DNA of 64,000 bases, taken from the NCBI GenBank assembly GCA_963514005.1, contig OY740826.1:558001-622000 (forward strand), written 5' to 3'. The stretch comes from Raja brachyura. Taxonomy: Eukaryota. This document shows positions 50,621 through 52,738 of the stretch, in pieces. The notes beneath the pieces were generated by a model. That model saw nothing but the letters and a program-made list of their open reading frames with translations, was not told the origin of the DNA and made no database searches. The stretch's first letter is position 1; the number at the start of each line of letters is the position of its first letter. Position numbers and translations under genes: made by a program.

Positions 50621-50756
50621 GAGCTTCACGCTGAGCTACGTTGCTACCAAGGATCTTTGATTACAACGCCGGGAGGAGACGGCACCGCGGAGAGATTCAC
50701 CCTTTACTTTTCTCTGTCCCATCACTCCCTCCCGCCGCCCTCTCCTCTCTCCCCAG

Positions 50757-50830
50757 CTGCCTGGCGAGCAGGATGGACTTTCTGCACACTAACGCCCGCT
50801 GGGCCAAGGGGGGGGGGCTTCACTCTCCCC
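50757..50830 (+). pseudogene. Degenerate copy 1 of the 5' part of the AID first coding exon (possible cassette exon)
   Basis: Polypyrimidine tract + CAG, then CLASRMDFLHTNARWAKG (vs CLMSKKKFLYHFTNARWAKG), followed by GTGAGT at 50831. Confidence 0.7.
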
Positions 50831-50954
50831 GTGAGTGTGAGAGAGAGACGGGGCGGTGCGGAGCGGACTCTACCCCAATGTCTGTCGTGTGCTTGCGCCA
50901 GGAGGATTCGGCTTTCACATTGTCTCTCCCTCTTTTTCTCCCTTCCCCCCCCGG

Positions 50955-51015
50955 AGGAACAAAAAAAGGAAGTTCTTGTCCCACTTCACGACCGCCCGCC
51001 CGCCGGGCCAATGCG
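50955..51015 (+). pseudogene. Degenerate copy 2 of the AID exon start
   Basis: Pyrimidine tract, then NKKRKFLSHFTTAR (vs SKKKFLYHFTNAR). Confidence 0.65.
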
Positions 51016-51544
51016 AGGAGGGAGGAGCTTCACTCATTTTTATACGCAAATAGATTTTATTCCACTTTACTTCGTACTCAAAGCACGTTGTGGAAGGATC
51101 GATACTGCCAAATAGCAGTTACAAACATCGACCAATCAATGATCAAATGAAAAAGGACGAGGCCCTGGACCCCCGTGGCGAGCAGCGGTCACGGAAGTTC
51201 CTATGGGAGGGCGGTATTCGATATAAATGACCATAACATCCATCCACAACCTGTCTCCCCTATTTCCAAGCGCACTTGGCAAATCGCCAGCTACTGTCGC
51301 TCCCACGACTCACGAAGAGACGCGTTCAAATGATTTTTAAAAGAAAGCCTCTGGAGTCCGGTGATGATCTGAGCTCAAAAGTCTCGCTGCCTTTGCTCCC
51401 CCTCCTCAACGTCGCCTTCCGAAATGTTGCTTCAAATCCTCCCAGCCACCGGAGCTTCACTGTGTGTGTGACTGAGAGGGAGAGAAGGAGTGGGAGATGG
51501 AGGAGGGAGTGGGAGAGAGAGAGAGACCGGACAGTGCGGAGTTT

Positions 51545-52345
51545 CTCTCTGTCTCTCTCCTATTTACTCTGTAGGTTCTGCCCATGTTATTGCTCGCAAA
51601 ATGCAACACTTCACATTTCTCTGTATTAAATTCCGATAAAAAAATCCTCACCCCATCTGTTCAACCGATCAAGATCTTGCTGCAATTGTTGACAAACATT
51701 TTCACTATCTACAATACCACCCACTTTTGTGACATCTGCAAACTTTGCCCTGTAGTTCCCAGTCTTTCCCCTGCAGCCCATCTTGAATGCAGGCAACATT
51801 TGCCACCCTCCAGTCTTCCAGCACCTTGCCTCTAATTAATCAGCACGCAGAAATCTACGTGTGGGCCCCTGCACTTTCCTTTCCAGCTTCCCACAGCATC
51901 CTCACATATATCTGATCTGGCCCAGGAGATTGGTCTATCTCCATGCTCATCAGGACCTTCAGCGCCTCTCCAACGGAACACCGACTGCTGCCAGACACCT
52001 CAGTATCCCCCATCCTCCTGTCTTTATCCACGGTAAAGATAGCGGAGAAATACTCATTGGGGACCTTTCCCATCTCCTATGGCTCCACACAGATTTGACC
52101 ACTTTGATGCCTGAGGGGTCTCATTCTCTCTCTGGTTACCCTTGTTCCCTTTATGTGCTTATACAATCTCTTGGGATTATCCTTATTGCTATGTGCCACA
52201 CATATTTCCTGTTCCCTTTTTGATCTTCTGATTGATACACTTAATCCCTGCTGCCTGTGCCTGTCCCAAGCCTCCTACTCTTGACCAAAGCCTCAATTTC
52301 CCTCGTCATCCAGGCTCGCTTACGTTTGCCTGCCTTGCCCTTCCC
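51545..52345 (-). mobile_element. Old CR1 fragment(s)
   Basis: KCEVLHF and SPGPDQIY.RML motifs on the minus strand. Confidence 0.7.
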
Positions 52346-52352
52346 TCTAACA

Positions 52353-52405
52353 GGGAAGAGCGCGAAGACGTTCCTGTACCACTAGCACTGGTCTAAGGGG
52401 AGAGG
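52353..52405 (+). pseudogene. Degenerate copy 3 of the AID exon start
   Basis: ccctctaacag acceptor, then KSAKTFLYH*HWSKGR (vs MSKKKFLYHFTNARWAKGR). Confidence 0.6.
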
Positions 52406-52738
52406 GAAGGAAGGGAGCGTCACTGTTTGTGTGTGCATGCATGTGTGTGCGTGAGAGTGAGAGAGAGGGGGAGGAAGAGAGAGAACGAAGGAGAGAGAGA
52501 GGGAGGGAGAGAGAGAGAGTAGGTCGGTGGGGGTTTGGGGGGGTAAGGTGTGGTCGGTGCGGAGGGAGCTTCAGTCTGTGTGTGTGTGACCACTGGGGGG
52601 GGGGGGGCAGGACGGTGTGGATGGAGCTTAGTGTATGTTGGTGCGCGCTTACACATACGGGAAGAGTCGGTGATGCAGCTCTGTGGAGGGAGTTTCACTC
52701 TATTTTCTCCTTCTTTCCCTCTCTCTCTCTCTCCACAG

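Follow-up and report, generated by a model that had tools for sequence, protein, structure and literature searches.

Three degenerate copies of an exon start in intron 1 of a skate AID gene, probably the decayed remains of an old tandem duplication

The stretch of Raja brachyura DNA analyzed here (the window; 64,000 nucleotides of contig OY740826.1) carries a gene for AID on its forward strand, with an open frame of 198 codons, no internal stop, and the same length as the AIDs of catshark and horn shark (Table 1). Among 38 matches to the 139-residue product of exon 2, the best is the single-stranded DNA cytosine deaminase of Leucoraja erinacea (94%); shark AIDs come next at 57-62%, that of Scyliorhinus torazame at 62%, and the Pfam families NAD1 and APOBEC_N are both matched. 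The closest proteins are vertebrate AIDs, and the zinc-binding HxE and PCxxC motifs lie within the open frame, as expected of a member of this family. Exon 1 is predicted from sequence alone: its coding part is the sole match to ATG-GAN-AG-GT on the forward strand of the window, and would supply an N-terminus resembling those of catshark and horn shark AID, which begin M-D-S-C-L-M. An exon 1 look-alike near 45416-45459 was rejected at an alignment score of 24, below a background of 34-36; within 45366-45430, a TATA-like element precedes a short sequence similar to that on the 5' side of exon 1, in an alignment that likewise does not rise above background.

AID has four coding exons here, and a single exon, exon 2, combines the N-terminal part of the protein with its catalytic motifs. 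In human AID the equivalent stretch is split in two exons; a literature search on AID exon number returned nothing relevant. Between skate and sharks, the N-terminal residues show high conservation. Over 52740-53156 the skate protein is unusually divergent: shark AIDs match it at 56-62%, much as those of lungfish and mammals do (55-59%); the changes fall around the catalytic core, and GC3 in exon 2 is 0.87. The L. erinacea protein entry (193 aa) begins at an internal methionine of exon 2, and a fitting exon 1 is present in our window, so that the annotation of that gene may lack exon 1. A pattern search for AID relatives in metagenome contigs gave 254 matches, none of which was confirmed.

Several repetitive features lie elsewhere in the window. 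Intron 3 contains, at 55249-55898, 2.9 tandem copies of an 89-bp unit, a further copy in inverted orientation (43 nt, 95% complementary), and a 24/48-bp minisatellite. Judged by eye, open reading frames at 23753-25357 resemble a broken retroviral envelope-type gene, with cysteine-rich surface and transmembrane-like parts in different frames, and broken frames at 5504-8421, with reverse-transcriptase and RNase H-like motifs, look like those of a DIRS-type retroelement. A stretch of ~490 nt occurs twice within 57100-62255 (57113-57580 and 61777-62255), like long terminal repeats round a decayed element.

Table 1. Features of the AID locus (window coordinates; organisms D and E are the related organisms treated in the text).
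Feature	Position	Strand	Remarks
27-bp minisatellite	48320..48885	+	20.8 copies, TRF score 837; resembles 5' half of the repeat motif
AID exon 1, predicted coding part	49179..49186	+	ATG, one codon and two bases of a third; GT donor at 49187
AID intron 1	49187-52738	+	contains all three units, U1, U2 and U3
U1	50692..50814	+	copy of 52690-52802; present in organism E
U1 candidate pseudoexon	50757..50830	+	74 nt, closed by GTGAGT donor at 50831; predicted only
U2	50913..51018	+	pyrimidine tract, no homologous AG; exon-derived part with 3- and 4-nt insertions
Likely separated 5' half of U3	51449..51560	+	inferred; motif, GT/GA run, second motif, start of CT tract
CR1-like LINE, internal fragment (endonuclease/RT ORF)	51562..52354	-	antisense; provides the tract before U3
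U3 exon-derived part	52355..52402	+	deletions of 5, 2 and 7 nt; present in organism D joined to LINE
Motif copy and GT run	52561..52590	+	alternative 5' boundary of the duplicated unit
Source segment	52685..52802	+	motif, pyrimidine tract, real acceptor and first 21 codons; GGAGG at 52685-52689 and 52798-52802
AID exon 2	52739..53157	+	419 nt; HAE and SWSPC..C motifs both inside
AID exon 3	54809..54924	+	116 nt; AG/GT ends; open frame
AID exon 4 to stop codon	56529..56582	+	completes the 198-codon frame

Long GA-rich runs flank intron 1. Within it, the antisense LINE fragment, presumably of the CR1 group, is recognizable by its likeness to the window's own endonuclease and RT ORFs (tblastn E-values of 4e-19 and 2e-9; also by tblastx), and reaches a depth of 10^4 in DNA runs. 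A further ~400 nt of non-simple sequence (51035-51445), matching no Pfam or Rfam family, splits the array of units after U2; its 3' part recovers several contigs per run, which suggests a low-copy repeat. Rfam returned no match over 45000-57000, and no Pfam family was found in the ORFs that cross the units and the insert (50635-51147 and 51237-51626) or in two short LINE pieces.

A sequence-only reading of the window had proposed that three degenerate copies of the AID exon start precede the real exon. These copies are present where it placed them, and their scores lie well beyond chance. In local alignments with the first 64 nt of exon 2, U1, U2 and U3 score 58, 55 and 51, as compared with 28 for the highest-scoring unrelated one among 2130 tiles on both strands, and none of 500 shuffled queries reached any of the unit scores in intron 1 (maximum 36). 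The corresponding blastn E-values are 3e-10, 2e-5 and 3e-4, and 47/58, 48/62 and 41/49 of the aligned exon bases are identical. Six later tiles of exon 2, covering 52803-53157, score 19-28 against intron 1, and none is copied there. The units are thus same-strand, adjacent and homologous above chance, as in a partial intragenic tandem duplication, and the duplicated codons are those of what we take to be the NLS region of AID.

The three copies differ in their state of preservation. U1 retains branch-point-like pentamers at -58 and -51, a pyrimidine tract (90% pyrimidine) and a CAG acceptor (AG at 50755-50756) preceded by a 62-nt AG-free zone, and its exon part comprises the first 21 codons with an in-frame deletion of 6 nt. 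By a crude pyrimidine score, which is not a MaxEnt score, its acceptor ranks third among the 461 AGs of intron 1. Inclusion of a U1 exon of 74 or 80 nt, as set by two candidate donors, is predicted to shift the frame and to bring a stop at codon 30 or 32. The donor at 50831 arises from a GT run that also trails the motif elsewhere. A run of ten G residues (50808-50817) sets the length of the exon at 74 nt (frameshift) as opposed to 75 nt (in frame), such that its reading frame rests on an unstable element. U2 lacks an AG where homology would place the acceptor; the closest one belongs to a GAG at 50954-50956, use of which would lead to a stop at codon 35. In U3, the AG lies at 52352-52353, so that an exon would start at 52354, in a different frame from the one that had been translated, and would be predicted to stop at codon 17 whichever way the acceptor is used. 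This AG sits on the LINE junction and is compatible with both sources. Each copy had been described as following a pyrimidine tract, which holds except that the tract before U3 lies inside the antisense CR1-like fragment and is no copy of the real one. A motif-plus-tract remnant at 51528-51560 is probably the detached 5' half of U3; for the wider interval 51449..51560, the alignment score against the real motif and the beginning of its tract is 31.

Inspection of the unit boundaries reveals that U1, U2 and U3 share a single 3' end, at the position of 52801-52802 of the real exon, within a GGAGG that spans codons 20-21. Truncation near the AR/WAKG codons, as previously described, is therefore common to all three, but the ends do not vary from unit to unit, and U2 and U3 also reach W-A-K-G. 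The same GGAGG begins the local repeat motif (52685-52689; 52561-52565), so that it stands at both ends of the source segment, as a head-to-tail junction would require. Consistent with such a junction, the 10 nt that follow U1 and U2 agree with the start of the segment at 8 and 9 positions, and with the continuation of the exon at 1 and 2; U1 agrees with the expected head-to-tail junction at 21/25 bases without gaps, and the U3 junction differs from the 15-nt motif by 3 mismatches. One shared breakpoint is most simply explained by a single duplication event that was later re-copied. The earlier proposal that a module of motif, acceptor and first codons was repeatedly duplicated is in this way supported, and narrowed to one shared GGAGG junction.

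The motif itself follows each unit and precedes the real tract, as had been noted, but it is local rather than unit-specific, and also occurs at 47384, 50616, 51451 and 52561. Seven of its eight matches in the window (at most 3 mismatches in 15 nt) lie within 47384-52685, all on the forward strand. It may belong to a genome-wide elasmobranch satellite with many copies in sharks and skates; in run X13, several other contigs align on 52589-52591, and a search for the degenerate motif in metagenome contigs gave no match. The duplicated unit may have begun at the 52561 copy and measured ~240 bp, rather than ~113 bp from 52685, a choice with modest support: the 3' junctions of U1 and U3 fit the 52561 copy better than the 52690 copy (24 as compared with 16, and 28 as compared with 12), and that of U2 fits it worse (18 as compared with 23). 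Of 1000 shuffles, 8 and 28 attain the observed score when motif and spacer are scored together; when the spacer that precedes the motif is scored by itself, 75 and 185 do so, which is not significant.

Two of the intron copies are also present in contigs of related organisms. A contig of organism E contains U1 with its upstream flank (50571-50815), and one of organism D contains U3 joined to the matching LINE end (52066-52422), indicating that the duplication is older than those species splits. The fit of the organism E contig ends within the 10-G run. The copies stand at a Jukes-Cantor distance of 0.23 from the exon, as compared with 0.04-0.085 between species, and are therefore probably several times older than the splits. 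Differences from the real exon number 7/56, 15/56 and 11/57 at the three codon positions, and third positions are no more variable than first and second (11/57 as compared with 22/112; p = 1.0), so that the bias expected of coding constraint, as in mutually exclusive exons, is absent. U2 and U3 carry frame-breaking indels. The longest exact runs shared with the exon, 11 and 14 nt, are those expected by chance at 81% identity (P 0.70 and 0.42).

Conservation of the units in related species, which the sequence-only reading had proposed as a check, holds for the presence of U1 and U3 and fails for their rate of change, which at ~8% is no slower than that of the neighboring LINE (4-6%). In organism E, the U1 block shows 20/248 differences (8.1%) and 17 gap letters, among them those of a 7-nt deletion in the tract (50731); the LINE pieces show 30/524 (5.7%; p 0.21) and the exon 2 block 20/486 without gaps (p 0.038). 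In organism D, the LINE end with U3 shows 27/357 differences, as compared with 7/186 for LINE (p 0.09) and 21/475 for the exon block (p 0.07), and a block upstream of U1 shows 10/171 with 19 gap letters, no different from the exon block (p 0.53). These comparisons use 8 of 32 listed pieces (a further 164 difference rows lie outside the listing), in blocks that mix unit with flank, and presume the LINE pieces orthologous solely from a likeness of 94-96%; three of the five p values are above 0.09 and a fourth is 0.07, with low power for a signal of few bases such as a splice site. At the level of whole-block rates, which carry that low power, U1 does not exceed the neighboring intron in conservation as a poison exon would, and the decay of the units looks neutral.

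Contigs that bear on splicing come from run X6, which carries the window's own organism label and is not recorded as RNA. No RNA record is listed over 52690-53165, which carries no weight as to expression. One of the contigs (344 letters, depth 6) aligns to 52739-53052 from its letter 31 with 0 differences. Its match starts precisely at the real acceptor, and the 30 letters before it have no fit in the intron next to the exon, as a transcript spliced at 52739 would give. A second (depth 2) runs unspliced across the real acceptor; across acceptor and exon 2 these two contigs show 0 differences to the window. No splice junction at a unit was seen among the 15 joints listed of 110, with 52423-52533, which holds the candidate donors of U3, skipped as repeat. 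Mean depth in the X6 bin with the exon part of U1 is 0.92, as compared with 1.57 if one depth-2 contig spanned 50757-50826 and 1.77 if the first 30 letters were the end of U1; this value reflects contig holes and is not evidence on splicing, as is also true of the lack of X6 cover in bins 50916-51360 and of both organism D runs, in which 50738-50826 is thinly covered and 50916-51004 not at all.

Taken together, these observations are best explained, at a probability of roughly 0.8, if the units are decayed copies of the intron 1 acceptor and the first 21 codons of exon 2, which arose by one old tandem duplication, were re-copied, and have no function today. In the order of events that we infer, a slip or unequal exchange would have joined the GGAGG of the exon to that of an upstream copy of the motif (52685 or 52561, for a unit of ~113 or 240 bp), giving a head-to-tail duplicate of the acceptor and 21 codons, of which two further copies would later have been made. 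The upstream copies would have had an acceptor and no donor of their own, so that the full downstream exon would have stayed the one chosen by the spliceosome. Mutation, repeat growth, the 400-nt insert and the LINE fragment would then have eroded the copies, with the extra acceptors removed or weakened. Among the four functions or fates offered by the sequence-only reading, neutral debris is the best fit, given the absence of third-position bias, the indels, the lost AG of U2 and the LINE-derived tract of U3. Low-level mis-splicing at U1 would be compatible with debris. Against it stand the persistence of U1 and U3 in relatives and the fact that, after ~19% divergence, U1 still has a frame, a CAG, a tract and a consensus donor.

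Those same features of U1 are what commend a regulatory alternative, in which a duplicate of the exon 2 acceptor would have become a poison exon that shifts the frame. If 50757-50830 were included, it would place a stop at codon 30, expose the message to nonsense-mediated decay and so throttle the mRNA of a mutagenic enzyme, with the 10-G run as a switch. The signal set is complete in U1 (pentamers at -58 and -51, a long tract, CAG, GTGAGT), the 74- and 80-nt donors both shift the frame, and the unit is found in organism E. By the crude score, an acceptor and a donor round an early stop occur in U1 only. The U1 block, however, diverges at least as fast as the LINE, with a deletion in the tract in organism E; the donor comes from a GT run that is common after the motif, and the frame hangs on the unstable 10-G run. 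Moreover, in the human AID variants described in the available text of PMC4209801, the changes fall in the C-terminal part and exons 1 and 2 are retained. We accordingly regard a poison exon as unlikely. Should it exist, one extra G would give a 75-nt in-frame exon and an AID with a doubled N-terminus, and a regulated U1 would mean that the most ancient lineage to have immunoglobulins restrains AID from the N-terminal side, through NMD, where the known human variants are C-terminal. Alternative acceptor use, which had also been suggested, is implausible for U2, which lost its AG, and in U3 would bring a stop at codon 17. Alternative coding starts gain no support, given the divergence of the copies, the lack of codon-position bias and the frame-breaking indels in two of the three.

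The copies might instead act unspliced, as decoy 3' splice sites or as cis-elements that slow the removal of intron 1 or tune AID transcription. The AGs beside the units rank second, third and in the next group of the 461 in intron 1 by pyrimidine content, and the depth-2 contig of X6 is unspliced over the real acceptor; pre-mRNA or DNA would give the same contig, the units show no conservation above background, and introns generally hold a large excess of unused splice-site look-alikes (PMC7951965, in its available text). This role seems to us more doubtful still than that of a poison exon. Even less probable is a role of the copies as gene-conversion donors from which the AID N-terminus would be diversified. 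They do lie on the same strand, upstream of their target and within 2 kb, and a same-strand upstream array is the layout of pseudogene conversion donors. At 77-84% identity to the exon (19.5% divergence), however, they share no long identical tracts, with exact runs no longer than chance, and no codon-position bias; indels in two of the three would break the frame, the N-terminal residues they would diversify are highly conserved from skate to sharks, and the two contigs of the window's own organism show no difference across acceptor and exon 2. Finally, the GA-rich runs on either side of the intron might raise the suspicion of an assembly artefact in a low-complexity region, to which we give next to no credence: the copies are ~20% off the exon and unlike each other, and the occurrence of U1 with its flank and of the U3-LINE junction in contigs of other organisms indicates that they are no assembly error.

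If the units are the debris of a duplication, they matter little. They would nevertheless illustrate clearly how five bases of microhomology can let a repeat motif capture the start of an exon, could serve as a lineage marker for skates, and could mislead gene annotation or primer design. Small elasmobranch chromosomes are described in the available text of PMC10620051 as having abundant simple tandem repeats and raised GC and Ks, a pattern that fits the AID locus with its exon 2 GC3 of 0.87. In the literature covered, we found no description of these units or of skate AID splicing.

Several known systems resemble the AID units in part; each is compared here as the available text of its source describes it. 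Copies of SCN-alpha exon 5, and the partial copy in Ciona Cinav1a (bioRxiv 10.1101/2025.08.16.670673), are likewise translatable exon look-alikes that lie on the same strand in the adjacent intron and stem from an old tandem duplication. The 5a/5b pairs of SCN, however, are whole exons with mutually exclusive splicing and conserved intronic elements (bioRxiv 10.1101/2025.08.16.670673), whereas the AID units are three copies of only 64 of the 419 bases of exon 2, lack a native donor and show no evidence of constraint; no unit is a whole-exon copy with its own donor and frame, and all tested inclusions stop early. In intragenic tandem duplication with intronization (PMC2891723), a small exonic duplication similarly becomes intron, but there a duplicated proto-splice site makes a new intron, whereas in skate AID an existing acceptor was spanned and intron 1 merely became longer. 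Pseudoexons and decoy sites, including those derived from antisense transposons (PMC7951965), are matched by the acceptor and donor signals of U1 and by the tract that U3 takes from an antisense LINE; unlike them, the U1 acceptor duplicates the gene's own next acceptor, and U1 is a candidate from sequence alone. The human AID variants delta-E4, delta-E4a, ivs3 and delta-E3E4 (PMC4209801) concern the same gene, with splicing as a possible brake, but affect its C-terminal part, and none of those described there has a duplicated exon start in intron 1. By analogy with these systems, the skate AID units would represent a further instance of a partial tandem exon duplication left in an intron.
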